A stretch of 64,000 nt of DNA from Thermodesulfobacteriota bacterium (GCA_040758155.1 JBFLWB010000144.1:5481-69480); one strand, 5' to 3'; shown: positions 5,216-52,417, numbered from the stretch's first letter. A program made the numbers and translations. Notes: a model not told the origin generated them from the sequence alone.

Positions 5216-5324
5216 TCCGGTCGGGGGCTATCATCCGGAATTGTGAAAGGTTTCACAGAACGGTTCCTGCGCGGAGAATTACGCTTTCCTTATGCAGACG
5301 CCATGAAGGCGAAAGGGGATCGCG

Positions 5325-6233
5325 ATGGAAAACGAAAGCGGGAGAGGATTCGGCTCCCTTTACATAAACGAAAGGGAAGGCAAGCCGCGGAAAAGGGGAG
5401 TGACGGAGATCCGGGGTCCGTATTACACGCCCCTCGGGAAGCGGGCGCTCCAGGACATCCTGGAAACGATGGGCGAGTACGTGGACATCTTCAAGTTCAG
5501 CGGCGGCTCTTTCGTCCTCATGCCGGAGAAGTCGGTCCGCGACCTGATCGATCTCTGCCACGGGGACGACGTCCTCGTGTCCACGGGCGGGTTCATCGAG
5601 CACGTGCTGACGATGGGGCCGGATGTCGTGGACCGGTACCTCGAGGAGTGCCGGCGGGTGGGATTTGACATCGTGGAGGTATCTTCGGGGTTCATCTCGA
5701 TCCCCGACGACGACCTCGTCCGCCTCGTTGAGAAGGTCCGCGGGCTCGGGATGCTGCCGAAGCCCGAGGTCGGGATCCAGTTCGGGGCCGGCGGCGCAAG
5801 CCCCGCCGCGGAGCTGGAAGCCGAGGGGGTGGCGGACCCGGACCGGGCGATCCGCCAGGCGAAGCGGTACCTGGACGCGGGGGCCCACCTGGTGATGATC
5901 GAGTCGGAGGGGATCACCGAAAACGTCAAGGCATGGCGCACCGGCGTCCCGGCCCGGTTCATCCGGGAGCTCGGGCTGGAAAACGTGATGTTCGAGGCGG
6001 CCGACCCGGACGTGTTTTCCTGGTACGTGAAGTCGTACGGCCCGGAGGTGAACCTGTTCGTGGACCACTCCCAGATCGTGCAGCTCGAATGCCTGCGCTC
6101 CGGTATCTGGGGAACCGCGGGAACGTGGGGCCGCGTGGTCACCTATAAAGTGCCCGCGAGAGGGCGCGCGGCGCCCGCGGCGGGCGTGCGGCAGCTGAAG
6201 GTCGCGGCGAAGGTCCGGGGGAAGGCGGCATGA
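5325..6233 (+). CDS. comA: (2R)-phospho-3-sulfolactate synthase (ComA) family protein
   Basis: Aligns by eye with archaeal ComA across its length (YVDIFKFSGGSFVL, VLVSTGGFIEHVL, GFDIVEVSSGFISIPDDD, YLDAGAHLVMIESEGIT, NVMFEAADPDVFSWYVKSYGPEVNLFVDHSQIVQLECLRSG). Confidence 0.8.
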   Translation: MENESGRGFGSLYINEREGKPRKRGVTEIRGPYYTPLGKRALQDILETMGEYVDIFKFSGGSFVLMPEKSVRDLIDLCHGDDVLVSTGGFIEHVLTMGPDVVDRYLEECRRVGFDIVEVSSGFISIPDDDLVRLVEKVRGLGMLPKPEVGIQFGAGGASPAAELEAEGVADPDRAIRQAKRYLDAGAHLVMIESEGITENVKAWRTGVPARFIRELGLENVMFEAADPDVFSWYVKSYGPEVNLFVDHSQIVQLECLRSGIWGTAGTWGRVVTYKVPARGRAAPAAGVRQLKVAAKVRGKAA

Positions 6234-7627
6234 GCCCCCGGGGCGGGGCCGATTCGGCCCGTCTTCTCCACGGGCGGACGCGGCTCCAGGAACTGTCGAC
6301 GTTCGTGCACCGGGCGGAATGGGACGGCATCTCCCGCGCCGCCCGGAAGGCGCTCAAGATCAGAGTGCTCGATTCCCTCGGGTGCGCCTGGGGCGCCATG
6401 GAGGCCGGACCGATCCGGAAGATCCGGCGGCACGTGGCGGAGTTCGGCGGCAAGCCGCTCTGCACGCTCATCGGGGGCGGCCGGACGTCGCCCGACCGGG
6501 CTGCGTTCTACAATTCCGCTCTGATCCGCTACCTCGATTTCAACGACAGCTACCTCGCGAAGGGGGAGACGTGCCACCCCAGCGACAACCTGGGGGCCGT
6601 GCTGGCGGCGGCGGAATACGCGGGGATCTGCGGGAGAGAGCTGCTCGCCTCCCTCGCGGCGGCGTACCAGGTGCAGTGCCGCCTGTCGGACGTCGCCCCG
6701 CTGCGCGCCCGCGGTTTCGACCACGTCACGCAGGGCGTCATCGCCGCGGCGGCGGGGGCGGGGAGGGCCCTGTCGCTCGACGAGGAACAGCTGGCGAACG
6801 CCCTGGCGATCGCGGCGACCGCGAACAACGCGGTGCGCGCCACCCGGACGGGGGAGCTCTCCCACTGGAAGGGGCTGGCCGCCCCCAACGCGGCGTTCAA
6901 CGGGCTGCGCGCCGCCTTCCTCGCGAAGGAGGGGATCACCGGGCCCGCCGGCGCCTTCGAGGGGCCGAAAGGGTGGATGCAGGTCGTCTCCGGGCCGTTC
7001 GAGATCGATTGGGAGGGCGAGGGGCTGGAGCGTGTGAGCCGCACCGTCCTGAAGAAATACAACGCGGAGATCCACTCCCAGTCCGCGATCGAGGGGCTGC
7101 TCGGCATGATGGAGGCGGAGCGGTTCACGGGCCGGCAGATCGCGCGGATCCGCGTGGAGATCTTCGACGTCGCCTTCCTGATCATCGGGGGAGGCGCCGA
7201 GGGGGACAAGACGGTCGTGCGGACGAAGGAGGAGGCAGACCACAGCCTTCCCTACATCCTGGCCGTGGCCGCGCTGGACGGGGAGGTGACCCCCGCGCAA
7301 TATGCGCCGGAGCGGATCCTGCGGGACGATGTCCAGGAGCTTCTCCGGAAGGTGGAGGTCGTGCCGGATCCCGTCTTTTCCGCCCGTTTTCCGGAGGAGC
7401 ATGCCTGCCGCCTGACCGTCGCCCTGAGAGACGGCCGGATCCTCACCCGGGAGAAGACCGACTACGAGGGTTTCCACACCCGGCCGATGTCCATGGACGG
7501 GGCCGCCGGGAAGTTCCGCCGGGTCGCGGACGGCTCTCTGGATCCCGCGCGGATGGAGTCCGTCATCCAGGCGGTTTCCGGGATGGAGAACCTCACGGCG
7601 AGGGAGCTGGCCGGCTTTCTCGTGTAG
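6230..7627 (+). CDS. MmgE/PrpD-family protein (2-methylcitrate dehydratase-like)
   Basis: A 465-aa protein with MmgE/PrpD-family length and motifs (IRYLDFNDSY, GAVLAAAEYAG, HWKGLAAPNAAFNGLRAAFLAKEG). Its ATG overlaps the comA stop (ATGA). Confidence 0.8.
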   Translation: MSPRGGADSARLLHGRTRLQELSTFVHRAEWDGISRAARKALKIRVLDSLGCAWGAMEAGPIRKIRRHVAEFGGKPLCTLIGGGRTSPDRAAFYNSALIRYLDFNDSYLAKGETCHPSDNLGAVLAAAEYAGICGRELLASLAAAYQVQCRLSDVAPLRARGFDHVTQGVIAAAAGAGRALSLDEEQLANALAIAATANNAVRATRTGELSHWKGLAAPNAAFNGLRAAFLAKEGITGPAGAFEGPKGWMQVVSGPFEIDWEGEGLERVSRTVLKKYNAEIHSQSAIEGLLGMMEAERFTGRQIARIRVEIFDVAFLIIGGGAEGDKTVVRTKEEADHSLPYILAVAALDGEVTPAQYAPERILRDDVQELLRKVEVVPDPVFSARFPEEHACRLTVALRDGRILTREKTDYEGFHTRPMSMDGAAGKFRRVADGSLDPARMESVIQAVSGMENLTARELAGFLV

Positions 7628-7633: not shown

Positions 7634-8617
7634 TCACACGTGGTTGCGCAGCATCAGCTCGACGGGGTGGGGATGGAGGAAAACCTGCCGCTCCAGGTAG
7701 GGGACCCTGTACTTGCGGACGTAATGGTTGATCAGCGTGACGGGGACGATCAGCGGGATCATGCGGTTCCTGTACCGATCGACCACCTCGAGCAGCTCCT
7801 GCTTCTCTTCGTGCATCAGGAGCACCCGGAGATGCCCCATCATGTGGACGAGCACGTCGGCGCACCTGGCGGGGGTGGCGCGCTGCGCCAGCGCCTCCAT
7901 CAGGAGCCGCTGGTAGCGTTCGTAGAGCTCGTCCGGAGGGAGATCCTTCGAGCGGCCCACGAGTTGCCCCATCTCGGTGTACCGCGTCCTCCCGTGGGCG
8001 AGGATCAGCATCTTGTGGTCGGTGTGGAACCCCGCGAGGTTCCCCCGGGACTTTCCCCTGCGAAGCGACTCGCGGAACCGGCGCAGGGTGAACATGCGCT
8101 CGATGAACATCTCCCGGAGGATCGGGTCCTGGAGCCGGCCTTCCTCCTCCACCGGGATCAGCGGGAAATGCTCCATGAACGCCTTCGTGAACAGCCCCGC
8201 GCCCACCTTGGCCGGGACTCCGTCCGCGCCGAACACCTTGACGCGCTCCATCCCCGAGGTCGGCGAGTCCTTCTTGCAGATGTAGCCGCTCAGGTCGGAC
8301 TCCTCGAGGTTCCGCAGCTTCTTCCGGCCGTAGGACAGCATCAGGTCGGTGAAATCCGTACCCGTCCCCGCCCCGACAAGCCGGGGGGCGTCCGGGTTCC
8401 CCTTCAGGCGCATGGCCTCCCTCGGGACCGGGAAGCCGCACTCCACTTCAGGGCACACGGGGACGAATTCCACGAACCGGCCCAGCGTCTCCGTGAGGAA
8501 GGGATCCCTCTTGTGACTGCCGTCGTAACGGACCTTCTCGCCCAGCAGGCAGGAGCTGATCAGGATCCGGATCGGCCCGCCCGGGGGATCCCTGCGCGAA
8601 GTCTCTTCGGTTTCCAT
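7634..8617 (-). CDS. DUF523 (2-thiouracil desulfurase-like) plus DUF1722 protein, YbgA family
   Basis: The N-terminal ILISSCLLGEKVRYDGSHK motif typical of DUF523/YbgA is followed by a DUF1722-like helical C-terminal half. Confidence 0.8.
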   Translation of the reverse strand: METEETSRRDPPGGPIRILISSCLLGEKVRYDGSHKRDPFLTETLGRFVEFVPVCPEVECGFPVPREAMRLKGNPDAPRLVGAGTGTDFTDLMLSYGRKKLRNLEESDLSGYICKKDSPTSGMERVKVFGADGVPAKVGAGLFTKAFMEHFPLIPVEEEGRLQDPILREMFIERMFTLRRFRESLRRGKSRGNLAGFHTDHKMLILAHGRTRYTEMGQLVGRSKDLPPDELYERYQRLLMEALAQRATPARCADVLVHMMGHLRVLLMHEEKQELLEVVDRYRNRMIPLIVPVTLINHYVRKYRVPYLERQVFLHPHPVELMLRNHV

Positions 8618-8690
8618 TTAGTGCATTATAAACAACGATTCCCGCGTTGGTGTATTCTCTTATAATTTGGTTGACCGAGGAGGGCTTGGC

Positions 8691-9995
8691 ATGTCCGGAA
8701 CCGGACCGATCCTGATCGTCGACGACGAAGCGAGCATCCGGCAGTCGCTGGAAGGCGTCCTGGCCGACGAGGGATATTCCTGCATCCTGGCGGGGGACGG
8801 GGCCGAGGCGATAGCGCGGCTCCGGGATTCGCGGCCGGCGCTCGTGCTTCTCGATATCTGGATGCCGGGCATGGACGGCCTCGAGACGTTGCGCCGGATC
8901 AAGGAGGAGAGCCCCCGCACCCCCGTCGTCATGATGAGCGGGCACGCGACGATCTCGACCGCGATCCGCGCCACGAAGGACGGCGCCGCCGATTTCATCG
9001 AGAAGCCGCTGGAGATCGAGACGGTGCTGAACGCCATCCGCCGCGCGCTCGGGTCCGGCGAGGGCGCGGCGGAAGCGGGCGGGGGAGAGGCCTCCGTGCC
9101 GGCCGGCCTTCACGATGCAGCCGAGCTTCCCGAGCTGAAGACCGTGGTGTTCGCGAAGCAGGCGCTTCCCGGCGACCGGATGCCGCAGAGGACGCTCGCC
9201 CGCGGGGCGGTGATGTACGGGCAGGGGCTCCACTCGGGGAAGAAGAGCGGGCTGATCTTCGAGCCGCTCGGGCCCGGATCCGGGATCCATTTCGCCGGCG
9301 TCTCGGACAACCGGCCGATCCCGGCGCACATCGATTTCGTCGGGTCGACCGGATGGGCCACGACGATCCGCCTCGGGACCACCCAGGCGGCCACCATCGA
9401 GCACGTCATGTCCGCGCTGAACGCGTACGGGATCTCCAACCTGCTCGTCAAGTGCGACGGGGAGGTTCCGGTCCTGGACGGCTCCGCCGTCGAGATCTGC
9501 AACCTGATCGAGGAAGTCGGAATGGTGGAGCAGAAGGGGGACTGGCGGCGGATCGCGCTTTCGGAGCCGATCCAGGTCGATTCGGGGAAGGCGTCGATCC
9601 GGCTGGAGCCGTTCGACGGGTTCGAGATCGATTACACGCTCGAGTACCCCGCGCCCGTCGGGAAGCAGCGCTTCGTATTCCGCCTCGGCGACCCGTCGGA
9701 CTTCCGCAGGGAGATCGCCCCGGCCCGGACCTTCGGATTCGCCAGGGACATCGGCGCGCTGCAGAAGCAGGGACTTGCGCTGGGAGGCCGCTTCGACAAC
9801 TTCGTCCTGTTCGGGGACGAGGGGCCGATCAACGGAGCGCTCCGGTTTCCGGACGAGCCCGTCCGCCACAAGATCCTCGACGCGTTCGGCGACTTCTACC
9901 TCCTCGGGCGGCGCCTCCAGGCGAGGGTGATCGCCCGCATGACGGGGCATTCGCACAACATCGCCCTGCTGAAGAAGGTCCGCGAGCTGATGTGA
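8691..9995 (+). CDS. Response-regulator receiver domain fused to an LpxC-type deacetylase domain (REC-LpxC)
   Basis: The N-terminal REC (ILIVDDEASIR, VLLDIWMPGMDG, VVMMSGH, FIEKPL) is followed by a full LpxC fold that aligns with E. coli LpxC (RTLARGAVMYGQGLHSGKKSGLIFEP, TIEHVMSALNAYGISNLLVKCDGEVPVLDGSA, ARTFGFARDIGALQKQGLALGGRFDNFVLF, VRHKILDAFGDFYLLG, MTGHSHNIALLKKV). Zinc-ligand and catalytic positions are conserved. A GAGGAGGG ribosome-binding site lies 7 nt upstream of the ATG at 8691. Confidence 0.85.
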   Translation: MSGTGPILIVDDEASIRQSLEGVLADEGYSCILAGDGAEAIARLRDSRPALVLLDIWMPGMDGLETLRRIKEESPRTPVVMMSGHATISTAIRATKDGAADFIEKPLEIETVLNAIRRALGSGEGAAEAGGGEASVPAGLHDAAELPELKTVVFAKQALPGDRMPQRTLARGAVMYGQGLHSGKKSGLIFEPLGPGSGIHFAGVSDNRPIPAHIDFVGSTGWATTIRLGTTQAATIEHVMSALNAYGISNLLVKCDGEVPVLDGSAVEICNLIEEVGMVEQKGDWRRIALSEPIQVDSGKASIRLEPFDGFEIDYTLEYPAPVGKQRFVFRLGDPSDFRREIAPARTFGFARDIGALQKQGLALGGRFDNFVLFGDEGPINGALRFPDEPVRHKILDAFGDFYLLGRRLQARVIARMTGHSHNIALLKKVRELM

Positions 9996-11066: not shown

Positions 11067-11552
11067 ATGGGACTGGAAAGGCTGACGGAGCTGCTCCGGC
11101 GGGGGCTGATGTACCTCGCCGGAGCAGCGCTGCTGGGGGTCACGCTGCTGGCGACGGCCAACGTCGTCCTGCGGATCTTCCGGGTCCCCGTGGGCGGCGC
11201 CTACGAGGTCGTCTCCTTCCTCGGGGCGCTCGTCACGGCCGGCGCGCTCGGCTACACCCAGAAGCGCAGGCACCACATCGTGGTGGACATCCTCTCGGAC
11301 CGGTATCCTCCCGCGCTCAAGCGCGTCGTCGACCGGGTAAGCCAAGCCGCCATGCTCCTCCTGTTCGCCGTCGTCTCCTGGCAGACGGCGGCCTACGGGG
11401 TGCGGCTGATCCGGGTGGGGGAGCTCTCGGAGACGCTGAAGTTCCCGTTCCACCCCTTCGTGTTCCTCGTCGCCCTGGGTTTCGCCGTCCTCGCGCTGAC
11501 GATCTTCCTCGATCTCGTGGAGTCCTTCTGGGCAGAGGAGGAGAAGCGTTGA
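11067..11552 (+). CDS. dctQ: TRAP transporter small permease (DctQ family)
   Basis: A 161-aa protein with four predicted TM segments, sized and placed between DctP and DctM. Confidence 0.8.
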   Translation: MGLERLTELLRRGLMYLAGAALLGVTLLATANVVLRIFRVPVGGAYEVVSFLGALVTAGALGYTQKRRHHIVVDILSDRYPPALKRVVDRVSQAAMLLLFAVVSWQTAAYGVRLIRVGELSETLKFPFHPFVFLVALGFAVLALTIFLDLVESFWAEEEKR

Positions 11553-12853
11553 GCGGTCCCGCCATCGGCCTGCTGGGGATCGGGGCGATGTTCCTCATCC
11601 TGTTCCTCCTGCGCATCCCCGCGGCATTCACCATGATGCTCGTGGGCTCCGCGGGGATCGCCCTGATGACCTCGTTCGACGCGGCGTGCGCGATCGTAGG
11701 GACGGAGATGTGGAACATCTTCTCGAACTACGGGCTGACGGTGATCCCGCTGTTCATCCTGGTGGGGGAGATCGTCCACTACGCCGGCTACAACTTCAGC
11801 GTCTACGACGCGACGTACAAATGGTTCGGGCACTTCCGGGGCGGGCTCGCCATGACCACGATCATGGCATCGGCGGCCTTCTCGGCCATCTCGGGGTCCA
11901 ACACGGCGACGGCGGCCACGATGAGCGCGGTCGCGATCCCCGCGATGAAGGAGTACAAGTACCACCCGCTGCTCAACGCCGGCGCGGTCTCCGCGGGCGC
12001 GACGCTCGGCGTCCTGATCCCGCCCTCGCTCGTCCTCGTCGTGTACGGGCTCTACACGGGGCAGTCCATCGGGAAGCTGTTCTTCGGCAACATCATCCCC
12101 AGCGTCATCTTGACGCTGGCCATCCTCGGCACGGTGGTTTGGATCTGCCGCATCCATCCCGACTGGGGCGCGGCGGGGCCGCGGTTCGGATGGAAGGAGC
12201 GGCTGAAGGCGCTGCCGGAGGCGGCCGACATCCTCGTCCTCTTCGGGATCATCATGTACGCGATGTTCACCGGGGTCGTCACCGCGACGGAGGCGGCCGC
12301 CGTGAGCTGCTTCCTCGGATATGCGATATGCCTTGCGAGACGCAAACTTACATGGAAGAAGTTCATCGATTCCATGAAGGACACCCTGCGGATCTCCTGC
12401 ATGGTCTTCATGATCGTGGCGGGCGCGGTGGTCTTCGCGCGCTTCCTGACGCTGACCCGCCTGCCGTTCGAGATCGCGGAGTGGATCGGAACGCTCGCCC
12501 TCCCCCGGTGGATGGTCCTGTGGGTGATCCTCGGATGCTACATCCTGGGCGGCTGCGTCATGGACGCCCTTGCGTTCCTCCTCGTGTCGCTGCCGATCTT
12601 CTACCCGCTGGTCGTCCAGCTCGGCTACGACCCGATCTGGTTCGGGCAGGCGGTGACGATCGTCACCACGATGGGCGCCATCATGCCTCCCATCGGGATC
12701 TGCTGCTACGTCGTCTCCGGGATGTCCGGCATACCGTTATCGACCGTCTTCCGCGGCTCCTTCTACTATTTCCCCGCCTACATCGTCTCCATCGTCATCC
12801 TCATGATCTCCCCGTACTGGACGGTGCTCGTGCTGTCCGACATGGTGCGGTGA
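11549..12853 (+). CDS. dctM: TRAP transporter large permease (DctM family)
   Basis: A 434-aa polytopic membrane protein of DctM type (LFILVGEIVHYAGY, GSNTATAATMSAVAIPAMKE). Its start overlaps the dctQ stop. Confidence 0.85.
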   Translation: MSGPAIGLLGIGAMFLILFLLRIPAAFTMMLVGSAGIALMTSFDAACAIVGTEMWNIFSNYGLTVIPLFILVGEIVHYAGYNFSVYDATYKWFGHFRGGLAMTTIMASAAFSAISGSNTATAATMSAVAIPAMKEYKYHPLLNAGAVSAGATLGVLIPPSLVLVVYGLYTGQSIGKLFFGNIIPSVILTLAILGTVVWICRIHPDWGAAGPRFGWKERLKALPEAADILVLFGIIMYAMFTGVVTATEAAAVSCFLGYAICLARRKLTWKKFIDSMKDTLRISCMVFMIVAGAVVFARFLTLTRLPFEIAEWIGTLALPRWMVLWVILGCYILGGCVMDALAFLLVSLPIFYPLVVQLGYDPIWFGQAVTIVTTMGAIMPPIGICCYVVSGMSGIPLSTVFRGSFYYFPAYIVSIVILMISPYWTVLVLSDMVR

Positions 12854-12870
12854 CGGGAGTACGCGGCTCC

Positions 12871-14703
12871 ATGAACCGTCCGATGCTCATGCTGGGAAAC
12901 GAAGCGATCGCGCTCGCGCTGATCGAGAACGGCTGCCGGGTCGCCGCGTCGTACCCGGGGACGCCCGCATCCGAGATCCTCTCCGCCGTGGCGAAGCTGC
13001 GCAACGATCGCGGGATCCCGATGCACGCGGAATGGTCGGTGAACGAGAAGGTCGCCTTCGAGATCGCCTACACCGCGAGCGTCGCGGGGCTGCGCGCGGC
13101 GGCGGGCATGAAGCAGGTGGGGCTGAACGTGGCGTCCGACCCGCTGATGAGCGCCGTCTACTCGGGCGTGAAGGGCGGCTTCCTCGTCATCTCCGCGGAC
13201 GACCCCGGTCCGCACTCCTCACAGACCGAGCAGGACAGCCGGCTCATGGCGATGGTCGCCAAGCTCCCCGTGCTCGACCCCGATTCCCCCGCCCATGCCC
13301 GGGATCTGGTGGCGCTCGGGTATGAGCTGTCGGAAAAGTTCGAGATCCCCGTGATGCTCCGCCCCACGACGCGTGTGTGCCACGCGTGCCAGGACATCCT
13401 GCCCGGCGATTCCGTTCCTCCGGCGGGAGAGGCCGATTTCCGGAAATCTCCCTCCCGCTGGGCGGCCACGCCGGTCTTCCGCAACCTGCTTCACAAAGAG
13501 CTGACCACGAAGCTGGCAGAGATCGCCGGGTGGGCGCCGACCGCTCCGATCCGATGGAATCCGGACGCGTCGGGGACGCGAGCCGTTGTCGCCTCCGGCG
13601 TCGCCGCGGCCCACGCTCGGGAGGTCCTGGAAGGGCTCGGGCTGTGGGGGAGCGTGCCCTTTTACCAGGTGCTCCAGCCGTTTCCTCTGCATGCCGACTT
13701 CGTGTCCCACGTCCTTGGAAGCTACGGGGAGATCCTCGTGCTCGAGGAGACGGCAGCGGTCATCGAGATGCAGCTTCTCGACCGGGGGCGCGTCAGGGGG
13801 AAGGCGACCGGCGCTGTGCCCGAGGCGGGGGAGCTGCTGCCGGAGGAGATCGAGCGCATCGTCTCGGAGTTCGCCGGGATCGGGGCGGGAAAACCCGCGG
13901 AGAGGGGTGCGCCTCCGCCGGGCCGCCGTCCCACCCTGTGCGCGGGATGCCCGCACCGCGCGAGCTTCTACGCGATCCGGCGCGCCGCCCCCAACGGGAT
14001 CTACCCGAGCGACATCGGCTGCTACACGCTGGGGCTGAACCTGGGGGCGGTCGACACGGTCCTGTGCATGGGTGCGGCGGTCGGCCAGGCAGCGGGCTTT
14101 TACCAGGCATACCGGCTCGGCGGGAAGACGGTCGACATCGTCGCGACGATCGGCGACTCCACCTTCTTCCACGCGGGGATCCCCGGGCTGATCGACGCGG
14201 CGGTACAGAAGGCGAAGTTCGTCCTCGTGATCCTCGACAACGCGATGGCGGCCATGACGGGAGCGCAGCCCACGCCGGCTACCGGGTGCGGGGCGATGGG
14301 CGAGCCGACCGGTATCGTCGACATGGAGGCGCTCGTCCGCGCCTGCGGCGCCGGCTTCTGCAAGGTGGGAACGCCGTCCCGGTTCGACGAGTTCGTCGCC
14401 CTCCTCAAGGAGGCGCTCGCGTACAGCCGCGAGAACGGCCCGGCCGTGGTGATCGCCCGGGAGCCGTGCGTGATGTCGCTTGGGGGGAAGGCGCGAGCGG
14501 ATGCCCCGAAGGCGGTCGTCACCGACGCGTGCGCCGGCTGCCGGCACTGCGTAGACCGGTACGAGTGCCCGGCGATCGTCTTCGACGAGGATGGGAAGCG
14601 CGCCTGCATCGACGGGTTCCACTGCGCGGGCTGCGGCGTCTGCCTGCACGTCTGCCCCCTGGGCGCGATCCGCGCCGGCGGCGGGGAAGGGGGGGCGCCG
14701 TGA
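12871..14703 (+). CDS. iorA: Indolepyruvate:ferredoxin oxidoreductase alpha subunit (IorA)
   Basis: N-terminus MLMLGNEAIALALIENGCRVAASYPGTPASEIL, a TPP-binding region (GCYTLG, IGDSTFFHAG) and a C-terminal 2x[4Fe-4S] ferredoxin domain (CAGCRHCVDRYECP ... CAGCGVCLHVCP). Confidence 0.9.
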   Translation: MNRPMLMLGNEAIALALIENGCRVAASYPGTPASEILSAVAKLRNDRGIPMHAEWSVNEKVAFEIAYTASVAGLRAAAGMKQVGLNVASDPLMSAVYSGVKGGFLVISADDPGPHSSQTEQDSRLMAMVAKLPVLDPDSPAHARDLVALGYELSEKFEIPVMLRPTTRVCHACQDILPGDSVPPAGEADFRKSPSRWAATPVFRNLLHKELTTKLAEIAGWAPTAPIRWNPDASGTRAVVASGVAAAHAREVLEGLGLWGSVPFYQVLQPFPLHADFVSHVLGSYGEILVLEETAAVIEMQLLDRGRVRGKATGAVPEAGELLPEEIERIVSEFAGIGAGKPAERGAPPPGRRPTLCAGCPHRASFYAIRRAAPNGIYPSDIGCYTLGLNLGAVDTVLCMGAAVGQAAGFYQAYRLGGKTVDIVATIGDSTFFHAGIPGLIDAAVQKAKFVLVILDNAMAAMTGAQPTPATGCGAMGEPTGIVDMEALVRACGAGFCKVGTPSRFDEFVALLKEALAYSRENGPAVVIAREPCVMSLGGKARADAPKAVVTDACAGCRHCVDRYECPAIVFDEDGKRACIDGFHCAGCGVCLHVCPLGAIRAGGGEGGAP

Positions 14704-15284
14704 ACGGGCGCGCGGTGCGGGGCGGGGATGTCCGTCAGCAGATCCTCGTCAGCGGCGTGGGGGGGCAGGGGGTGCTCTTCGTTTCCCGGCTCCTGGCCGA
14801 GGCGGCCATCTGCCGCGGGATGAGCGTCCTGACGTCCGAGATCCACGGCATGGCGCAGCGGGGCGGGACGGTGGTGTCCCACGTGAAGGTGGGCGGCTTC
14901 CCGGGTCCCCTGATCCGCGAGGGGAAGGCCGACGGCATCGTCGTGCTCCGGGAGGAGAACCTTCCCGCCCACCGGCGCTTCCTGTCTCCTTCCGGGTGGG
15001 CCGCGGTGAATTCCACGGCCCCGGGGGCGGCTCCCCCCGATCCCCGCGTCCTTTTCGTCGACGCCGGGGGGATCGCGGTGAAGGCGGGGATGCCGAAAGG
15101 GATCAACCTGGTCCTGATCGGGTATCTTCTCGCGCGGCTCGATTCCGCGGGAGAGGGGGGGCGGATCTTCTGCGAACCGGAAGACATCCGGGAGGCGCTG
15201 GGCGCCCGCTTCGCGCGGAATCCCCGCGTCCTAGAGGAGTCCCTGGCGGCGTTCGCGCTGGGAATACGTCACGGTAGGGAATGA
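14700..15284 (+). CDS. iorB: Indolepyruvate:ferredoxin oxidoreductase beta subunit (IorB)
   Basis: A GTG start overlaps the iorA stop. Contains ILVSGVGGQGVLFVSRLLAEAA, the typical IorB/gamma-like CoA-binding Rossmann motif. Confidence 0.8.
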   Translation: MNGRAVRGGDVRQQILVSGVGGQGVLFVSRLLAEAAICRGMSVLTSEIHGMAQRGGTVVSHVKVGGFPGPLIREGKADGIVVLREENLPAHRRFLSPSGWAAVNSTAPGAAPPDPRVLFVDAGGIAVKAGMPKGINLVLIGYLLARLDSAGEGGRIFCEPEDIREALGARFARNPRVLEESLAAFALGIRHGRE

Positions 15285-16588
15285 GGTATCAAGCCATGCT
15301 CAAAAGATTCCCCCCGAAATACTCATCCGTCGACGCGCTTCCCGGCTACCAGCTCCGGGGGCTCCAATGGACGGTGTCGCACGCCTTCCGGCACTCCCCC
15401 TTCTACCGCCAGCGCCTCGAAGCGGCGGGGGTGACGCCCGGAGACATCCGCTCGCTCGACGACATCCGGCGGCTCCCCTTCACGACGGCGGACGACCTGA
15501 GGGAGGGGTACCCGCTGCCGCTTTTGTCGGTCGATCCGAAGGAGATCGTGCGGATCCATTCCTCCTCGGGGACCACGGGGAAGCGGAAGGTCCTTTGCTA
15601 CACGCAGAAAGACGTCTCCGACTGGGGCTGCATGTTCGCCCGCTGCTTCGAGATGGCGGGGCTCACGCAGGAGGACCGTGTTCAGATCTGCGTGGGGTAC
15701 GGGCTCTGGACGGCCGGGGCGGGCTTCCAGGCGGGAGTGGAGAAGTTCGGCGCGATGGCCATCCCCGTGGGGCCGGGGAACCTCGACCTGCAGTGCACCT
15801 TCCTGCTCGATCTGCGGTCGACCGTCCTCTGCTGCACCGCCTCCATGGGGCTGCTGCTGGCGGAGGAGGTGCACCGGCGGGGGATCCGCGGCCTGCTCAA
15901 ACTGAAGAAGGTCATCCTCGGGGCGGAGCGGACCAGCGACGCGATGATCGCGACGATCAAGGCGCTGCTGGGCGTCCGGGAGGTGTACGACATCCCGGGG
16001 CTCACGGAGCTGTACGGCCCCGGGACGGGACTGTCGTGCCGCCACGAGTCGGGGATCCACTACTGGGCCGACTACTACATCCTCGAGCTGCTCGACCCGG
16101 AAACGCTGGAGCCGGTCAAGCCCGGCGAGATCGGGGAGATGGTGTTCACCACGCTCGGCAAGGAAGGGTCGCCCCTCATCCGGTACCGGTCGCGCGACCT
16201 GACGCGGACGGTCGAGGGCGTCTGCCAGTGCGGCTGCATCCTGCCGCGGCACGACAAGATCCTCGGCCGCTCCGACGACATGATCGTCTTCCGGGGAGTC
16301 AACGTGTATCCCGGGCAGCTCGACGAGGTGCTCTCAAGGATCGACGGGGCCGGAAGCGAGTTCCAGGCGCACATCGAGCGGCGGGAGGACGGGAAGGACT
16401 ACATGACCATCAAGGTGGAGCGGGGGGCCCACATGGGCGAGGGCGCCGACGGCCCCATCGCCTCCGCGATCGCCGGGGAGATCAAGCACAACCTGATGGT
16501 ATCGTGCAACGTGCAGGTCGTCCCGTACGGGTCGCTCCCGAGGTCCGAGAAGAAGACCCGGAGGGTGTTCGACAGCCGCGTGTTCTGA
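15281..16588 (+). CDS. paaK: Phenylacetate-CoA ligase (PaaK) / coenzyme F390 synthetase family
   Basis: Shows the SSGTTGKRKV AMP-binding motif, PaaK-like length (about 435 aa) and a C-terminal domain (GVNVYPGQLDEVL). The ATG overlaps the iorB stop; an alternative start is at 15296. Confidence 0.85.
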   Translation: MRYQAMLKRFPPKYSSVDALPGYQLRGLQWTVSHAFRHSPFYRQRLEAAGVTPGDIRSLDDIRRLPFTTADDLREGYPLPLLSVDPKEIVRIHSSSGTTGKRKVLCYTQKDVSDWGCMFARCFEMAGLTQEDRVQICVGYGLWTAGAGFQAGVEKFGAMAIPVGPGNLDLQCTFLLDLRSTVLCCTASMGLLLAEEVHRRGIRGLLKLKKVILGAERTSDAMIATIKALLGVREVYDIPGLTELYGPGTGLSCRHESGIHYWADYYILELLDPETLEPVKPGEIGEMVFTTLGKEGSPLIRYRSRDLTRTVEGVCQCGCILPRHDKILGRSDDMIVFRGVNVYPGQLDEVLSRIDGAGSEFQAHIERREDGKDYMTIKVERGAHMGEGADGPIASAIAGEIKHNLMVSCNVQVVPYGSLPRSEKKTRRVFDSRVF

Positions 16589-16616
16589 GGGGGCATCCGC
16601 GCTCCGGAGGCGGACT

Positions 16617-17171
16617 TTACGGTTTCGAGACGAACGGATTCCCTCTGATGTAGAACCGCAGGAGCCGGCCGGCCCAACGGCGGCCGGCGTAGTCGACGCC
16701 GACCCGGGGCCTCTTCACGATCGCGGCGGGGGAGGCGCCGGGCTCCTCCGCGATGAAAAAACCGTCGCCCGTCAGGTCGTGCGCGTTCAGGCGCCGGTCG
16801 ATCCCCATCGCCTTGCACAACCGGCCCGGCCCGTTCGTGGCGGCGTCGACGTTCGCCACCGGTTCGAGGGCGCGCAGCAATACGGCCGAGGCGTGCCCTT
16901 CGCCCTCCGTGACCACGTTCATGCAATGGTACATGCCGTACACAAGGTAGATGTACGCGTGTCCCGGCGGCCCGAACATGACCCGGGTCCGCCCCGTCAT
17001 CCCCTTCGACGAATGGCAGGCGAGGTCGTGCGGCCCGACGTACGCCTCGACCTCCACGATCCGCGCGACCCGGTCCTTTCCGTCAACGTTGTGGACGAGC
17101 AGCTTCCCGAGCAGCTCCTGGGCGACTTCCACGGTGTTCCTGTCGTAGAAGGAGCGGGGGAGCTTCTTCAC
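16617..17171 (-). CDS. DNA-3-methyladenine glycosylase (Mpg/AAG family)
   Basis: A 184-aa protein with a GTG start overlapping the upstream activase stop by 4 bp. Carries the family pattern AQELLGKLLVH...ARIVEVEAYVGPHDLACHS...GHAYIYLVYGMYHCMNVV. Confidence 0.8.
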   Translation of the reverse strand: MKKLPRSFYDRNTVEVAQELLGKLLVHNVDGKDRVARIVEVEAYVGPHDLACHSSKGMTGRTRVMFGPPGHAYIYLVYGMYHCMNVVTEGEGHASAVLLRALEPVANVDAATNGPGRLCKAMGIDRRLNAHDLTGDGFFIAEEPGASPAAIVKRPRVGVDYAGRRWAGRLLRFYIRGNPFVSKP

Positions 17172-17950
17172 GTCCGCGGAGCCTCCGCCTCCAGTGCCGA
17201 CAGCGCGGCGCCGAGGGCGCCGACGAGCTGCGGGTCGGGGACCACGGCAACAGGCGCGCCCAGCGCCTGCGACAGGGCGTCCACCATCGCCGGGTTCAGC
17301 GCGACGCCGCCGCTCATGAACACCCTGGCCCCCGCGGGGACCGGGCCGACCAGCGAAGCCACCCGGCTCGCAAGCGCCGCGTGCAGCCCCTTGACGATGT
17401 CCTCCACCGGCTCTCCGCGCGCGACAAGGGAGACGACTTCGCTCTCCGCGAAGACGGTGCAGGTGCTGGTCACAGGGACCGTGCGGGAGGCGCGCGCGAC
17501 GTATTGCGCCACCTCGCCCGGCGGCACCCGGAGCCGCGCCAGGACGACTTCCAGGAAGCGGCCGGTTCCGGCGGCGCACTTGTCGTTCATCGCGAAGTCG
17601 AGGACGGTTCCGCCCGGCCCGACGCGGACGACCTTCGTGTCCTGCCCGCCGACGTCCACCAGGATGCCGGGCTCCCGGGTCCGGAAGAAGGCGCCCCGGG
17701 CGTGGCAGGTGATCTCGGTGAGCGCCCGGGTTGCGGCGACGCGTCTGCGGCCGTAGCCCGTCGCGCCGACGGGAACCGCAGGAACGCCGCCTTCCGCGCC
17801 GAGGGAGGCGAGCGCCCGTGCCGCCTGCTCCTCGATGCGGGGGTCGGCCGGCTCGAGGAAGGAGGCGACGATCCGTCCTTCGCCGTCGATGGCGACCGCC
17901 TTGAAGGTCGTGCTGCCGGCGTCGACGCCGACGGATGCGGGAGCGCTCAT
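17168..17950 (-). CDS. CoA-substrate-specific enzyme activase (BadF/BadG/BcrA/BcrD-type ATPase, HgdC-like)
   Basis: Contains VGVDAGSTTFKAVAID and the diagnostic MNDKCAAGTGRFLE motif. The protein is 260 aa. Confidence 0.85.
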   Translation of the reverse strand: MSAPASVGVDAGSTTFKAVAIDGEGRIVASFLEPADPRIEEQAARALASLGAEGGVPAVPVGATGYGRRRVAATRALTEITCHARGAFFRTREPGILVDVGGQDTKVVRVGPGGTVLDFAMNDKCAAGTGRFLEVVLARLRVPPGEVAQYVARASRTVPVTSTCTVFAESEVVSLVARGEPVEDIVKGLHAALASRVASLVGPVPAGARVFMSGGVALNPAMVDALSQALGAPVAVVPDPQLVGALGAALSALEAEAPRT

Positions 17951-19272
17951 TCGAACCCCTCCATGAAGGCCTGCAGGCGGTGATCGGCCTGTTCCTCCGA
18001 CCAGGCGCGCGGATCCGCGTGGTCCGCCTCCAGCAGCAGCGCCCGGACCCCCGCCTCCGAGACGAGGCGTCTCTGGAGGTCCACCTGGCCGATCGAGTAC
18101 GGCTTGCACGAGCGGTCGCTGTGAAGGATCGCGCCGGCAGCGCCGTACTCCCGGCAAAGCCGCTTCATGAGGGCGAGCCGGTACGGAAGGTCCCGGTTGA
18201 GGAACACGTGCAGATAGGCGCGCGCCATGGAACCTTCGGGATCGGAGGGATCGACCAGGGCGCCGGCATCGGCCCAGGCGCTCGTGTAGGTGGAGCAGAC
18301 GATGTTGAACCCGTTTTCCGCAAGCCGGGTGGAAAGCTCGCGGAGCCGGAACCACACGGGCAGGTTGTCCCAGAGCAGTCGCACCCGCTCGTCCGCGATG
18401 CCGCCCACGCCGCGCGCGGCGCGGTCCTTCAGCTCGTCCCGGAGCATCCGGTAATAGCGGTTGCACTCGGCGGTGCCGCGGATGGCGACGATCGGGGCCA
18501 GGTGGAAGAACGCGTCGAACCCGGTCCATGGGGACGGCCTCGCCCGACCGGCCTCCAGGCACTCCCCCCAGAGCAGCGAGCCTTCGCGGGAGCGGCGCAG
18601 CGTTTCGGCCAGCGCTTCCCGGTCCAGCCTGCGGCGAGCGATCCGTTCCGCCGTCGCGGCGAGCTCCAGAAGCTGCTCCGCGACGTAGTCCAGGTGACGC
18701 GGCTTCGCCTCGCCGTACAGGAATGGGGCATCGATGACGACGAGTGGGACGCGGAAGCGGTCCGCGAGGGCTCGGTACCAGTAAAGGACCGTCTGGCAGA
18801 TGTTCGTGCAGCAGCAGAGCAGGTCGGGGCGGGGGAGGCGCCCCACGGGGGTCGTCCCCGTGACGGCGCAGCCGATGTCGGCGCGCGCGTAGCCGCAGAG
18901 GTCCCTCGAATAGCCGAGCCGCTCCACCGCCGCGGAAAGGTCCGGGACCATGCGCTTCACCGAGCAGATCGCGGCGTGGTTTTCAGGGTAGACCGTATGG
19001 AATCCGAGCGCCCGCAGAATCTCGACGGGGAAGCCGGAGGTGACCCAGGCGACCGGAACGGCGCCGTCGGCGTACCGGCCCGCAAGGTAATGGAGGGAGG
19101 TCAGCTCCTTCAGCTTGCGCGTGGATTCCAGGGGGGGGCCGAAGGGACCGGTCGGACGTGTCCTACCCTTGCGCCCCGCGCGCGCACGGATCCGCGAAAC
19201 CGCGGAGACCGCGGACAAGGCCGCTCCACCGTATCGCGCCAGTGCTTCATATTGAATCCTTCGTAATATCAA
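17947..19272 (-). CDS. 2-hydroxyacyl-CoA dehydratase / benzoyl-CoA reductase B-C family subunit (HgdA-like)
   Basis: A 441-aa protein with an N-terminal VAWVTSGFPVEILRALGFHTVYPENHAAI pattern and the conserved Cys spacing of the HgdAB/BcrBC family. Its stop overlaps the activase start. Confidence 0.7.
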   Translation of the reverse strand: MILRRIQYEALARYGGAALSAVSAVSRIRARAGRKGRTRPTGPFGPPLESTRKLKELTSLHYLAGRYADGAVPVAWVTSGFPVEILRALGFHTVYPENHAAICSVKRMVPDLSAAVERLGYSRDLCGYARADIGCAVTGTTPVGRLPRPDLLCCCTNICQTVLYWYRALADRFRVPLVVIDAPFLYGEAKPRHLDYVAEQLLELAATAERIARRRLDREALAETLRRSREGSLLWGECLEAGRARPSPWTGFDAFFHLAPIVAIRGTAECNRYYRMLRDELKDRAARGVGGIADERVRLLWDNLPVWFRLRELSTRLAENGFNIVCSTYTSAWADAGALVDPSDPEGSMARAYLHVFLNRDLPYRLALMKRLCREYGAAGAILHSDRSCKPYSIGQVDLQRRLVSEAGVRALLLEADHADPRAWSEEQADHRLQAFMEGFE

Positions 19273-20363
19273 TTTGATGGATACCTATATTTTAAGTTCT
19301 CCACGAATGCTTCCAGTCGGGTGGCTGCCTGTGCGGGCATCTCCTTTTCCAGCCCGGTTTCCAGCAGCAGCACAGGCGCGCCGAGACCGGCGAACCGCTG
19401 CAGGATCGCGGGGACGTCGAAGCTTTCAGGCTCGCAGAATTTCGGGATGTGAACGACAAGCCCCGCGGAACCCGACCGCCGATACAGCCCCTCCAGGTAA
19501 GCCATCCTGCGCACCAGGTCCGCAGAGCGGGTCGGGCAGGGAGGCAGCCGGAACGGAAGGACGGAAAGCCGGTCGAGCGGGTCCGCGTCCTCATCTTCCG
19601 AAGGAAGGGGGATTCGTCGCCCGATCGCGGCGTAATCGTCGGCGGCCACGTAGGCGCCCGCGGCGTCCAGAAGATCGAAGAGGGTCATGGGCTCCGGAAC
19701 ATAACCGGTGACCATCAGGGGGATCCCGCTCCTGCGGCGCCCTTCGCGGATCCCGCGCACGGCGTCCTCCAGCTCCGCGAGGTGATCTTCGGGCCAGAGA
19801 TATTCGCCCCGGCGGAGCAGGCGGTACAAAGCGCCGTCGTCCGTCTCGAGATATGCGCGCCGGGACAGCAGCGTCCCGCGTAGACGGTCGATCTTGGCTT
19901 GAAGCGCTATCGCCTCCCGGAGCCGGCCGGCATCCGGCGGTTTGCCGGTCAGGCGGGAAAGCTCCCCGGCCAGCGCCTCCAGCTCCGAGCGGACGAATTT
20001 CCTTGCGGAAGGGCGGTCCTCCCCCTTCGGGTGATGGTATCGGAACGCCGGCTTCTCCCAGCCGCCGAGGTCGGGGGCGAGGGTCGCCAGCCCCTGGAGG
20101 GCGTCGCAGGTGTGGGGGATCAGGAGCGCGTCCGCATCCTTCCCCCCGCCCGACGCGAGGAACGCGAGGGCGTTGCGCGCCACGGCGCATACGTAGCTCT
20201 GGATGCGCCCGGAATCCGGCCCGCGGGGAGGGCCGGGCGGGCCCCACAGCTCCACCGCGTGGACATCCATCGCGGTGAGCAGCTCCCGCGGGTAGAACAC
20301 CGGCAGGACGATCGCGGTCTTCCTGCCGAGTTCCTTCTGCCGGGCGATGACTTCAGTTCGCAT
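19269..20363 (-). CDS. 2-hydroxyacyl-CoA dehydratase / benzoyl-CoA reductase B-C family subunit (HgdB-like)
   Basis: A 364-aa protein with AIVLPVFYPRELLTAMDVHAVELWG and LIPHTCDALQG, patterns typical of this family. Translationally coupled to the downstream subunit. Confidence 0.7.
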   Translation of the reverse strand: MRTEVIARQKELGRKTAIVLPVFYPRELLTAMDVHAVELWGPPGPPRGPDSGRIQSYVCAVARNALAFLASGGGKDADALLIPHTCDALQGLATLAPDLGGWEKPAFRYHHPKGEDRPSARKFVRSELEALAGELSRLTGKPPDAGRLREAIALQAKIDRLRGTLLSRRAYLETDDGALYRLLRRGEYLWPEDHLAELEDAVRGIREGRRRSGIPLMVTGYVPEPMTLFDLLDAAGAYVAADDYAAIGRRIPLPSEDEDADPLDRLSVLPFRLPPCPTRSADLVRRMAYLEGLYRRSGSAGLVVHIPKFCEPESFDVPAILQRFAGLGAPVLLLETGLEKEMPAQAATRLEAFVENLKYRYPSN

Positions 20364-20466
20364 GGGCGAATTACCTCATAATCGATTATCTCCCGCAAGG
20401 GCGCCGGATGTGACCGCGCGGCACGGCTGATATATAATCCGGACATCCCAACGGGAGGGGACGGAA

Positions 20467-21288
20467 ATGGGGAAGAGGACAGGGAAGGGGATCGTTGCTC
20501 TCGCGTTCCTGGCCGCGGCGGTTGCGGCGTTTTCGGGGGCGTCCTTCGCGGCCGGCCTCGCGCCCGCCAGCGTCGAATACTCGGCGGACCGCCATGTGAC
20601 CACGGGATCGGGTGAAGCCATGACGGGGAAGGTCCACGCCGCCCCGGGGAAGGAGCGCAACGAGTTCGGGGCGGGGGCCGTCAGCATCATGCGCATGGAC
20701 AAGAAGGTCATGTGGACGCTGATGCCCGATCAGAAGAAGTACATGGAGCACAAGTTCGGCGAGAGTACCGCGAAACGGGACCCGGGGAACATCCAGGATT
20801 GCGACGTGAAGCAGACGGCCGCGGGCGAGGAGACGCTCGACGGGTTCAGGACGAGGAAAAGCACGATCGAGGTTTCCTGCCCGGGCAAGGAGAAGTTCGG
20901 CGGGACGATGTGGATCACGAAGGAAAACATCGTGATGCGGATGGAGACCGACGTGAAGACCTCCGGGGCAAAGAAGGAGAAGTTCCGGATGGAGCTGAAA
21001 AACCTGAAGATCGGGAAGCAGGACCCCGCGCTGTTCGAGATCCCGAAGGGATACGAGAAGTTCGAGGTTCCCTCGATCGGGAACATCCAGCAGATGTTCC
21101 GGGACCAGGCGGCGAAGGACGAACAGCGCCGCAGGGAGCAGGAAGAGGCGAAGGCGAGGGAGAGGGAAGAAGCCGCGGCGAAGGCCCGGGAGACCGGCCG
21201 CTCCTATTCCGCGCAGCCCCGGGAGCAGACCCCGCTCGAGTCGGGCGTCGACAAGGCGAAGAAGCTCAAGAACCTGCTGGGCTGGTGA
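20467..21288 (+). CDS. Secreted hypothetical protein (DUF4412-like) with a charged KE-rich C-terminal tail
   Basis: A signal peptide is followed by a beta-rich domain and a low-complexity QRRREQEEAKAREREEAAAKARE tail. GC content is lower than in flanking genes. Confidence 0.6.
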   Translation: MGKRTGKGIVALAFLAAAVAAFSGASFAAGLAPASVEYSADRHVTTGSGEAMTGKVHAAPGKERNEFGAGAVSIMRMDKKVMWTLMPDQKKYMEHKFGESTAKRDPGNIQDCDVKQTAAGEETLDGFRTRKSTIEVSCPGKEKFGGTMWITKENIVMRMETDVKTSGAKKEKFRMELKNLKIGKQDPALFEIPKGYEKFEVPSIGNIQQMFRDQAAKDEQRRREQEEAKAREREEAAAKARETGRSYSAQPREQTPLESGVDKAKKLKNLLGW

Positions 21289-22118
21289 TACGCGCGCCGA
21301 AGATCGTTTTGATCGCCTGCCTGCTGGCGGCGGCTTCGCCGGCCCGGGCGGGCGAAAGGCGGCCTGACCCCTTTCCGGGGGTCGCCGCCTCCTACCTGCT
21401 GAAAGTTGACGGGACGGCGGTCTGGGAGCATTCGCCGGACCGCCGCCTGCCTCCCGCGAGCCTCACGAAGATGATGACGGCGCTGCTCGTCCTGGAGCGC
21501 GGACGCCTCGGCGAGGTGGCGACGGTCAGCCGGGCGGCCGCGGCGGAGACCGGCGCGCGGATCGGCCTTAAGCCCGGCGACCGGCTGCGCGTCGCCGAGC
21601 TGCTTGCCGCGACGCTTCTGCGGTCGGCAAACGACGCCGCCCACGCCCTGGCGGAGCACGTGGACGGGACGGAAGGGCGGTTCGTGAAGCGCATGAACGC
21701 CCGGGCGGCGGCCCTCGGGATGCGCAATACCCGCTTCGCCAACGCGTCGGGGCGCCACCATCCCGGCCACTACTCGACGGCGAACGACCTCGCCCTGCTC
21801 GCGGAGGCAGCGCTCGCGGACGACCGGTTCGCGCGGCTCGTCGCGCAGGTGCGCCTCGACATCGAAAACGCCGACGGCAGCCGGACGTTTCCGCTGGAAA
21901 ACGGCAACGAGATGGTGGGGCGGTACCGGGGCGCGGTCGGAGTGAAGACCGGCTACACCCGGGAGGCGGGACCTTGCCTCGTCGTTCTGGCGGAGCGCGG
22001 CCCCAACCGCGTCCTCCTCGTCCTGCTGAACGCGCCGAACCGGTGGTGGGACGCCGTCGGGATGCTGGACAACGCATTCTCCCTGGCCGCGGCGGGGGGC
22101 GCGACGCCGCGGCCATGA
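21285..22118 (+). CDS. D-alanyl-D-alanine carboxypeptidase (peptidase S11, PBP5-like)
   Basis: Contains the SLTKMMT (SxxK), SANDAA (SxN) and KTGYT (KTG) motifs and a signal-like N-terminus. The GTG start overlaps the preceding stop; the upstream part of ORF 20712..22118 is non-coding overlap. Confidence 0.8.
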   Translation: MIRAPKIVLIACLLAAASPARAGERRPDPFPGVAASYLLKVDGTAVWEHSPDRRLPPASLTKMMTALLVLERGRLGEVATVSRAAAAETGARIGLKPGDRLRVAELLAATLLRSANDAAHALAEHVDGTEGRFVKRMNARAAALGMRNTRFANASGRHHPGHYSTANDLALLAEAALADDRFARLVAQVRLDIENADGSRTFPLENGNEMVGRYRGAVGVKTGYTREAGPCLVVLAERGPNRVLLVLLNAPNRWWDAVGMLDNAFSLAAAGGATPRP

Positions 22119-39721: not shown

Positions 39722-39763
39722 CCTATAAATATAACCCGGATCCGTTCCGGCAAGGAGGGGCCC

Positions 39764-44298: not shown

Positions 44299-44336
44299 GC
44301 GCTTGCGAATGAACAAACGATCCGTCAGGAGACGAT

Positions 44337-52349: not shown

Positions 52350-52369
52350 AATGTGCCGGGTTCATGTCT

Positions 52370-52417
52370 GTCCCGGTTCTGCGCTTGTTCTGCGCTTTGC
52401 AGGAACGTCCCGGTTCT
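52370..52417. repeat. Short direct repeats upstream of the liv-type operon (GTCCCGGTTCT x2; GTTCTGCGCT x2)
   Basis: Read directly from the sequence, 13-60 nt upstream of the substrate-binding-protein ATG. Confidence 0.5.

Follow-up and report, generated by a model that had tools for sequence, protein, structure and literature searches.

A probable orphan 2-hydroxyacyl-CoA dehydratase-type cassette with mpg as its likely hitch-hiking last gene in a Thermodesulfobacteriota bacterium

Introduction

The closest known system to the genes described here is HadBC with HadI from Clostridioides difficile, an (R)-2-hydroxyisocaproyl-CoA dehydratase (PDB 3O3M, 4EHT). HadB coordinates its cluster as BzdO does, through three cysteines, and HadC retains only a remnant cluster; in BzdO, the catalytic [4Fe-4S]-OH2 cluster is ligated by Cys95, Cys128, and Cys380, with Glu65, His131, and Trp46 lining the active site, and the [8Fe-9S] double cubane of BzdN is ligated by Cys36, 73, 100, 263, 293, and 327 (PMC11971306, the 2025 BzdNO structure paper). 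We analyzed a 64,000-nucleotide stretch of a Thermodesulfobacteriota bacterium genome (GCA_040758155.1, JBFLWB010000144.1:5481-69480; the window), in which four overlapping minus-strand genes at positions 16617 to 20363 encode the beta and alpha subunits of an enzyme resembling 2-hydroxyacyl-CoA dehydratases (HADs), an activase, and Mpg, a 3-methyladenine DNA glycosylase of the human AAG family. We read this string, with a probability of roughly 0.7, as an orphan HAD-type cassette in a single-promoter operon, in which mpg was captured once and hitch-hikes without a functional tie to the enzyme. Coincidental operon packing had been one of the options raised in an initial annotation of the sequence, and it is the one favored here, the linkage of mpg being confined to one clade.

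Results

Organization of the four-gene string

The string and its candidate promoter comprise the following features.

20385..20414, minus strand: sigma70-like promoter candidate, GTCACA-18-GATAAT, upstream of beta; a consensus match
20363-19269, minus strand: beta subunit gene (HadC/HgdB-like, HGD-D), 364 aa, ATG start
19272-17947, minus strand: alpha subunit gene (HadB/HgdA-like, HGD-D), 441 aa, TTG start
17950-17168, minus strand: activase gene (HgdC/HadI type, ASKHA fold; BcrAD/BadFG-type ATPase), 260 aa, ATG start
17171-16617, minus strand: mpg (Mpg/AAG-family 3-methyladenine DNA glycosylase, Pur_DNA_glyco), 184 aa, GTG start

Each downstream start codon shares bases with the TGA stop of the preceding gene, which gives 4-bp overlaps at all three junctions: TTGA between beta and alpha, ATGA between alpha and the activase, and GTGA between the activase and mpg. 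The initial annotation had described four minus-strand genes linked in this way, and both coordinates and junctions can be read directly. The identities and order that it proposed (HgdB-like subunit, HgdA-like subunit, HgdC-type activase, Mpg) are supported by Pfam and NCBIfam, and its placement of the mpg GTG start inside the activase stop agrees with the GTGA overlap, with the length of the family, and with the alignment to AAG. The overlaps themselves are statistically unremarkable. DctQ/DctM, IorA/IorB, and IorB/PaaK are joined likewise elsewhere in the window (11549-15284, plus strand), so overlapping strings are a habit of this genome and do not single out this operon. The beta/alpha junction (~19250-19290) is strikingly AT-rich in a genome of 68% GC.

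A consensus promoter scan of the minus strand from 15500 to 21500 returned the site upstream of beta as its sole sigma70-like match. The scan yielded 2 sites in total against 0.5 expected from shuffles; the second (20410-20438) lies on the plus strand and divergently faces a DUF4412 gene. No promoter belonging to mpg was detected in the same interval, and a consensus terminator scan found no internal terminator within the beta-alpha-activase-mpg string. GGAGG repeats lie 11 to 21 nt upstream of the mpg GTG, inside the 3′ end of the activase gene.

The start codons agree with homologous proteins. The TTG start of alpha is backed by the N-terminus MIxRRLQYE, conserved in 21 homologues of 435 to 450 aa. 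The first 18 residues of alpha (MILRRIQYE...) align with the N-termini of these homologues, and a public alpha record of 423 aa (P0001, "Thermodesulfobacteriota bacterium") places the start 18 codons too late. The true N-terminus belongs to a conserved extension of ~45 aa that HadB does not have. An out-of-frame AGGA-N7-ATG at 19249, together with a C8 run near 19140, had suggested a frameshift in alpha; we rejected this idea, since the frame opened by the TTG aligns with the homologues over its full length. For mpg, initiation at the GTG gives a protein of the length usual in the family, with the Pfam match beginning at residue 7 and the alignment to human AAG at residue 3, and the activase ATG agrees with the N-termini of HadI and MbdQ.

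Identity of the subunits and the activase

Both subunits matched the Pfam HGD-D family (PF06050), beta at 3.5e-48 and alpha at 9.7e-70, and were placed against the characterized families by hidden Markov model, PDB-sequence, and fold scores. As a single query against PDB sequences, alpha scored 208 bits with HadB, 114 with MbdO, and 112 with BzdO; its family profile scored 262, 153, and 141 bits with the same three proteins and 31 bits with DCCP. Beta as a single query gave 74 bits with HadC and 57 with BzdN, and its family profile gave 186 bits with HadC, 140 with BzdN, 114 with MbdN, and 110 with DCCP. The AlphaFold model of alpha, which is mediocre (mean predicted local distance difference test score, pLDDT, of 68) and was used for coarse fold ranking only, reached a template modeling (TM) score of 0.83 to HadB (3o3m_A), 0.72 to MbdO, 0.70 to BzdO, and ~0.6 to DCCP.

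Equivalog models gave a complementary view. Alpha scored 252 bits with the HadB model NF052455 (cut-off 750), 162 with BcrB, and 110 with BzdO, and beta scored 62 bits with the HadC model NF052456 (cut-off 700). The models for the benzoyl-CoA reductases (BCRs) all remained far under their cut-offs (162 versus 487, 57 versus 421, and 118 versus 578), as did the DCCP model NF040772 (42 and 61 bits versus 350). Because all scores lie far below the HadB and HadC equivalog cut-offs, the cassette is, to judge from these models, an uncharacterized HAD subfamily and not an orthologue of HadBC; the databases already carry the label "2-hydroxyacyl-CoA dehydratase family protein".

The cluster ligands follow the HadBC pattern. 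Residues C126, C159, and C389 of alpha do not vary among 22 sequences and align with BzdO Cys95, Cys128, and Cys380 and with the matching HadB cysteines. E97 of alpha is conserved and aligns with BzdO Glu65; HadB has the same glutamate, so the residue does not discriminate between the two enzyme types. At the positions of BzdO His131 and Trp46, alpha has the family-invariant residues Val162 and Phe81, as does HadB. Sequence alignment shows MbdO to have no His131 equivalent either, and His131 is thus a feature specific to BzdO. In beta, C59, C86, and C310 are invariant (positions 73, 100, and 327 of BzdN), and beta also has C276, the BzdN 293 position being a cysteine in most family members. 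Where BzdN has Cys36 and Cys263, beta has Pro21 and Ala245, both invariant. The resulting pattern at the six double-cubane positions, P-C-C-A-C-C, has cysteine at four of the six and is identical to that of HadC; with proline and alanine at these two positions, a six-cysteine [8Fe-9S] site cannot form. Alpha is predicted to carry a catalytic [4Fe-4S] cluster with three cysteine ligands and the fourth iron open, and beta a three-cysteine cluster. A check of conserved cysteine ligands, suggested in the initial annotation, thus gave invariant trios in both subunits and the HadBC arrangement, and on present sequence evidence, the enzyme is of the HAD type and is neither a BCR nor a DCCP.

The activase scored 213 bits with TIGR00241 (cut-off 125). 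Its Cys125 and Cys164 lie in the motifs NDKCAAGTGRF and STCTVFAESE, both of which align with HadI and MbdQ. Against PDB sequences, it scored 188 bits with MbdQ, 176 with HadI, 164 with HgdC, and 145 with DCCP-R. A single activase gene is present in the window and in relatives; Bcr, Bzd, and Mbd have two different ATPase subunits.

Distribution of the cassette

Relatives were collected by a pattern scan with one genome per species, in which the first 600 matches were checked and the best 80 loci fetched. Of the 600, 584 were confirmed as relatives. Carriers include a UBA2219 genome (78% alpha identity), Candidatus Deferrimicrobiaceae, many Anaeromyxobacteraceae, among them the cultured Anaeromyxobacter oryzae Red232 (L030, 64% alpha identity), other Myxococcota, and genomes labeled Holophagae, Binatia, Deferribacteres, and others. 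Wherever the sequence permits the comparison, the 80 species loci have two adjacent paralogous HGD-D genes, with beta before alpha in essentially all. The activase adjoins alpha in 59 of the 74 loci with enough downstream sequence and is missing from that position in the remaining 15. Loci lacking it include L003-L007 and a group made up of L055, L059, L060, L065, L067, and L069. The 4-bp-overlap start codon recurs at 75 of 83 beta/alpha junctions and 56 of 67 alpha/activase junctions.

Beyond these three genes, the surroundings vary. When all flanking open reading frames were clustered, no other neighbor recurred in more than 9 of the 80 loci, and a Pfam census of immediate neighbors counted 91 families downstream (69 species) and 55 upstream (62 species), the commonest being protein kinase with 6 occurrences. 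Neither a CoA-transferase or 2-hydroxyacid dehydrogenase nor any DNA-repair theme was found among the immediate neighbors in these 69 and 62 other species. In respiratory Myxococcota, gene-called relatives form a bare three-gene operon between unrelated genes. Beta-alpha-activase is a widespread, self-contained cassette in most carriers. Judged from their names, most hosts appear to respire anaerobically and not to live by amino-acid fermentation; Anaeromyxobacter, other Myxococcota, and Deferrimicrobia-like groups are not known as classical amino-acid fermenters. We found no literature on this cassette in Anaeromyxobacter, Myxococcota, or Deferrimicrobia.

Genes with a connection to acyl-CoA compounds are scattered near the cassette at some loci (L017, L038, L054, L056, L057, L073, L077, and others). 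A long-chain-type AMP-binding CoA ligase occurs at 7 loci, enzymes with all three thiamine-pyrophosphate domains at 3, an acyl-CoA dehydrogenase at 2 to 4, a FadH-like dienoyl-CoA reductase at 2 to 4, and a Lar_N protein at 2. Taken together, they point faintly to acyl-CoA or 2-hydroxyacid metabolism.

Linkage of mpg to the cassette

Among the 74 informative species loci, mpg follows the cassette in one (L001). This is also the outcome of the comparison of mpg and activase synteny across relatives that the initial annotation had called for: adjacency in that single species locus and in one clade overall. When extra contigs are counted, beta-alpha-activase-mpg occurs in the window, L001, L081, L082, L088, and, partially, L089. 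Two further loci, L083 (6001-7862) and L085 (6001-7877), have beta-alpha-mpg with a 4-bp alpha/mpg overlap and no activase. At L084, the activase is followed by glycine-cleavage genes and mpg is absent, and L003, L004, L006, and L007 have neither activase nor mpg and carry a convergent hybrid-cluster protein gene after alpha. The Deferrimicrobiaceae relatives at L003 (8388-10049), L006, and L007 have beta-alpha, the convergent hybrid-cluster protein (Prismane family), and then a histone-deacetylase-like gene. An early view that the linkage is unique to two genomes was dropped because these extra contigs supplied further mpg-linked loci; the linkage is clade-wide and patchy.

Linked and unlinked loci of the clade have alpha sequences 74 to 80% identical to that of the window. 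In a simple neighbor-joining tree of alpha, all mpg-linked loci fall in one clade, and the outgroups all have the activase and lack mpg. When the search starts from Mpg instead, its 80 nearest metagenomic relatives (56-79% identity) stand in varied contexts, and the cassette is present at 1 of the 47 such loci with more than 900 nt of upstream sequence. Where linkage exists, 5 of the 6 linked relatives retain the 4-bp mpg overlap, among them the two with mpg directly after alpha. The most parsimonious history is that mpg was captured a single time behind the cassette and that mpg, the activase, or both were lost afterward.

The Mpg protein

The mpg product matched PF02245 at 1.6e-60 (204 bits, cut-off 27) and TIGR00567 at 184 bits (cut-off 116). 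Its match to human AAG reached 2e-37, with conservation of the VE(V/T)EAY, HS, YGMY.CMN, and LLRALEP stretches; when Mpg is aligned with 1BNK, its segments IVEVEAYVGPHDLACHS, YLVYGMYHCMNV, and VLLRALEP coincide with their AAG counterparts. The catalytic and base-flipping residues of human AAG, which we take to be Glu125, Tyr127, His136, Tyr159, Asn169, and Arg182 in the presumed numbering, lie in stretches conserved in Mpg. Codon composition is native (GC at third codon positions, GC3, of 0.91). Mpg is predicted to be an ordinary, catalytically intact base-excision glycosylase, and as a protein it is unremarkable. A solitary MutY-like glycosylase gene (HhH-GPD plus NUDIX_4) lies at 50964-52346 on the plus strand, ~34 kb away from mpg; the window shows no clustering of base-excision genes.

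Ior/PaaK and other gene content of the window

One gene abutting the operon bears on its interpretation.

15281-16588, plus strand: PaaK-type phenylacetate-CoA ligase, context gene outside the unit; TIGR02155 365 bits, equivalog cut-off 646

PaaK is the last gene of a DctPQM-IorAB-PaaK module that converges on the operon in the window and at L001, L081, L082, and L083. The convergence had been recognized in the initial annotation, and 28 bp separate PaaK from the mpg stop. Folded as a possible bidirectional terminator, this gap gave no significant hairpin (z = +1.1). Adjacency of Ior/PaaK occurs in 1 of the 80 species loci and is absent at L084 and L085 of the same clade. Because the genes are convergent, the module and the cassette are not co-transcribed. 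Pfam searches of nearly all likely genes found no family I/III CoA-transferase, no 2-hydroxyacid (including aryl-lactate) dehydrogenase, no acyl-CoA dehydrogenase, and no electron-transfer flavoprotein (ETF) in the 64 kb; lacking these pathway partners, the gene content leaves an aryl-lactate branch unsupported.

Several other genes of the window merit mention. An LpxC (UDP-3-O-acyl-GlcNAc deacetylase) with an N-terminal response-regulator receiver domain is encoded at 8622-9992 (plus strand), and this fusion is conserved in two relatives (L081:19803-21107 and L085:8713-10014). A TudS-like 2-thiouracil desulfurase domain joined to DUF1722 is encoded at 7637-8617 (minus strand) and recurs close to the cassette in L081 and L085; TudS is a single-domain relative of the BCR/HAD family (PMC11971306). 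At 5307-7624 (plus strand), a gene for a ComA-type (2R)-phospho-3-sulfolactate synthase stands beside one for a PrpD/MmgE-family dehydratase, a possible sulfolactate-related pair in a non-methanogen. A 1585-aa DUF748/AsmA-like protein followed by an 829-aa LonC-like protease (AAA_32, LonC_helical, Lon_C) occupies 39541-46799 (plus strand). The 1098-aa open frame at 52175-55468 (minus strand) matches no Pfam family, shows an unusual GC profile across codon positions (0.90/0.45/0.64), and is probably not the true reading frame; the gene caller was crude and mis-framed a few regions of the window, such as DctP and 52.2-55.5 kb. Transfer RNA and Rfam scans of the window gave no matches.

Discussion

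An orphan HAD-type cassette carrying a hitch-hiking mpg gene accounts for these observations as follows. A single transcript would probably start at the promoter upstream of beta, with translation coupled via the 4-bp overlaps, and the first three genes would yield an oxygen-sensitive iron-sulfur radical enzyme composed of a heterodimer and its activase. By analogy with the HAD paradigm, which is reportedly laid out by Buckel, Kung, and Boll in 2014 and by Knauer et al. in 2011, the homodimeric activase would spend ATP to inject one low-potential electron, the alpha cluster would bind the acyl-CoA thioester and give rise to a ketyl radical, and the alpha-hydroxyl group would leave as water to form an enoyl-CoA, with recycling of the electron. 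The mpg gene would have been captured downstream of the cassette once, in an ancestor of the window's clade, would now depend on the cassette promoter, and would be expressed through translational coupling as the final cistron of the operon, with no functional tie to the radical enzyme. Co-transcription of mpg with the cassette remains likely, since no promoter of its own was found, and because mpg is attached in one lineage only, the pairing of repair and metabolism is most likely operon hitch-hiking.

Several points weigh against this account. Neither of the usual partners of HAD pathways, a CoA-transferase or a 2-hydroxyacid dehydrogenase, is encoded nearby, and dehydratase chemistry on an acyl-CoA substrate is read across from ~31 to 36% identity to HadB. 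The alpha tree was built by simple neighbor joining, and the promoter and terminator scans are consensus matches only. At L083 and L085, which no longer have the activase, mpg still overlaps the preceding cassette gene by 4 bp, and such persistence might exceed what a purely neutral neighbor would show. The lack of a detected mpg promoter also ties the expression of mpg to the cassette.

The last two points are those on which a functional coupling would build. Here, Mpg would be kept to remove alkyl or etheno damage that the radical enzyme or its enoyl-CoA product inflicts on bases, so that repair is co-expressed with the hazard; AAG-family enzymes do excise etheno and alkyl purines, and the mpg overlap survives in most linked relatives, even directly after alpha. 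The link between electrophile production and alkylation repair floated in the initial annotation nevertheless finds no conserved mpg linkage outside one clade. Adjacency in 1 of 74 species loci, a cassette at 1 of 47 close Mpg relatives, a single origin followed by mpg losses within the same clade, and neighbors devoid of a DNA-repair theme in the other species surveyed make the coupling improbable. The initial annotation had named two things that would speak against it, mpg having its own promoter and linkage not being conserved; the latter holds outside the one clade, and the former was not found. It is just as improbable that in the Deferrimicrobia-like clade Mpg, as the terminal coupled cistron, is a dedicated metabolism-linked base-excision safeguard against purine adducts. 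A likelier though less striking possibility is that the cassette may act outside the four known HAD substrates, for example, on long-chain 2-hydroxyacyl-CoA in respiratory anaerobes.

The two metabolic assignments of the initial annotation fared no better. Characterized HADs include phenyllactyl-CoA dehydratase, and with HAD-type cluster ligands in place and IorAB/PaaK adjoining at five loci including the window, the cassette could conceivably catalyze a Stickland-type step from aryl-lactate to aryl-acrylate together with the convergent DctPQM-IorAB-PaaK module. We regard this as unlikely: the adjacency extends to one species locus in 80 plus a few contigs of the same clade and is missing from two loci within it, the convergent genes do not share a transcript, the 64 kb hold none of the aryl-lactate pathway partners sought, and the orthologous cassette stands solitary in respiratory Myxococcota. 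A class I BCR-like, ATP-driven reductase of arenes or dienoyl-CoA is the least probable reading of all. Its gene order (C-like, B-like, ATPase) does resemble bcrCBAD, the activase is slightly closer to MbdQ than to HadI (188 versus 176 bits), and the Glu65 equivalent E97 is present. That glutamate is common to HadB, however, and two of the double-cubane cysteines are replaced in beta, Val162 and Phe81 stand in alpha where BzdO has His131 and Trp46, one ATPase gene is found where Bzd, Mbd, and Bcr have two, the BCR equivalog models score far too low, and HadBC outscores Bzd and Mbd throughout the subunit comparisons.

If mpg linkage is a lineage-specific operon accident, as we favor, it deserves little weight, and the locus cautions against over-reading a repair/radical-enzyme "system" from gene order. 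A by-product of the analysis is the definition of a large orphan HAD-type subfamily marked by beta-alpha-activase order, 4-bp overlaps, HadBC-type ligands, an N-terminal extension of alpha, and no nearby pathway partners. The question of its substrate can be put to the test in cultured carriers such as Anaeromyxobacter oryzae Red232.

Set beside the known systems, the cassette shares with HadBC/HadI the combination of two paralogous HGD-D subunits and one ASKHA activase, the best match by sequence, profile, and fold, the same cysteine trio in alpha, the P-C-C-A-C-C pattern in beta, and valine and phenylalanine at the His131 and Trp46 positions. It differs from HadBC in the modest identity of alpha, in equivalog scores far under threshold (252 versus 750 bits and 62 versus 700), in a beta-alpha-activase order without a CoA-transferase (hadA) or dehydrogenase gene, and in the ~45-aa N-terminal extension of alpha. 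With BzdNOPQ and MbdNOPQ (PDB 8S02, 9G87/9GAI; PMC11971306), it has in common the superfamily and fold, three aligned [4Fe-4S] cysteines, the Glu65 equivalent, and a homologous ATPase module. Unlike them, it has no six-cysteine double-cubane site, no equivalents of His131 and Trp46, and one ATPase gene, and its scores with them (112-153 bits) fall below those with HadB (208-262 bits). DCCP with DCCP-R (PDB 6ENO, 7YYL) likewise pairs the HGD-D fold with a homodimeric ASKHA reductase from a single gene; DCCP is a one-subunit homodimer with six cluster cysteines, whereas here two distinct subunits have three invariant cysteines each, and the match to DCCP is weak, with 31 bits for alpha and 110 for the beta profile. 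Mpg resembles human AAG/MPG and bacterial Mpg (PDB 1BNK, 1EWN, 1F4R) in its full catalytic domain and in the conserved Glu/Tyr, His, Tyr/Asn, and Arg stretches, and is set apart from known Mpg proteins by position only, as the last overlapping cistron of a putative radical-enzyme operon in one clade.

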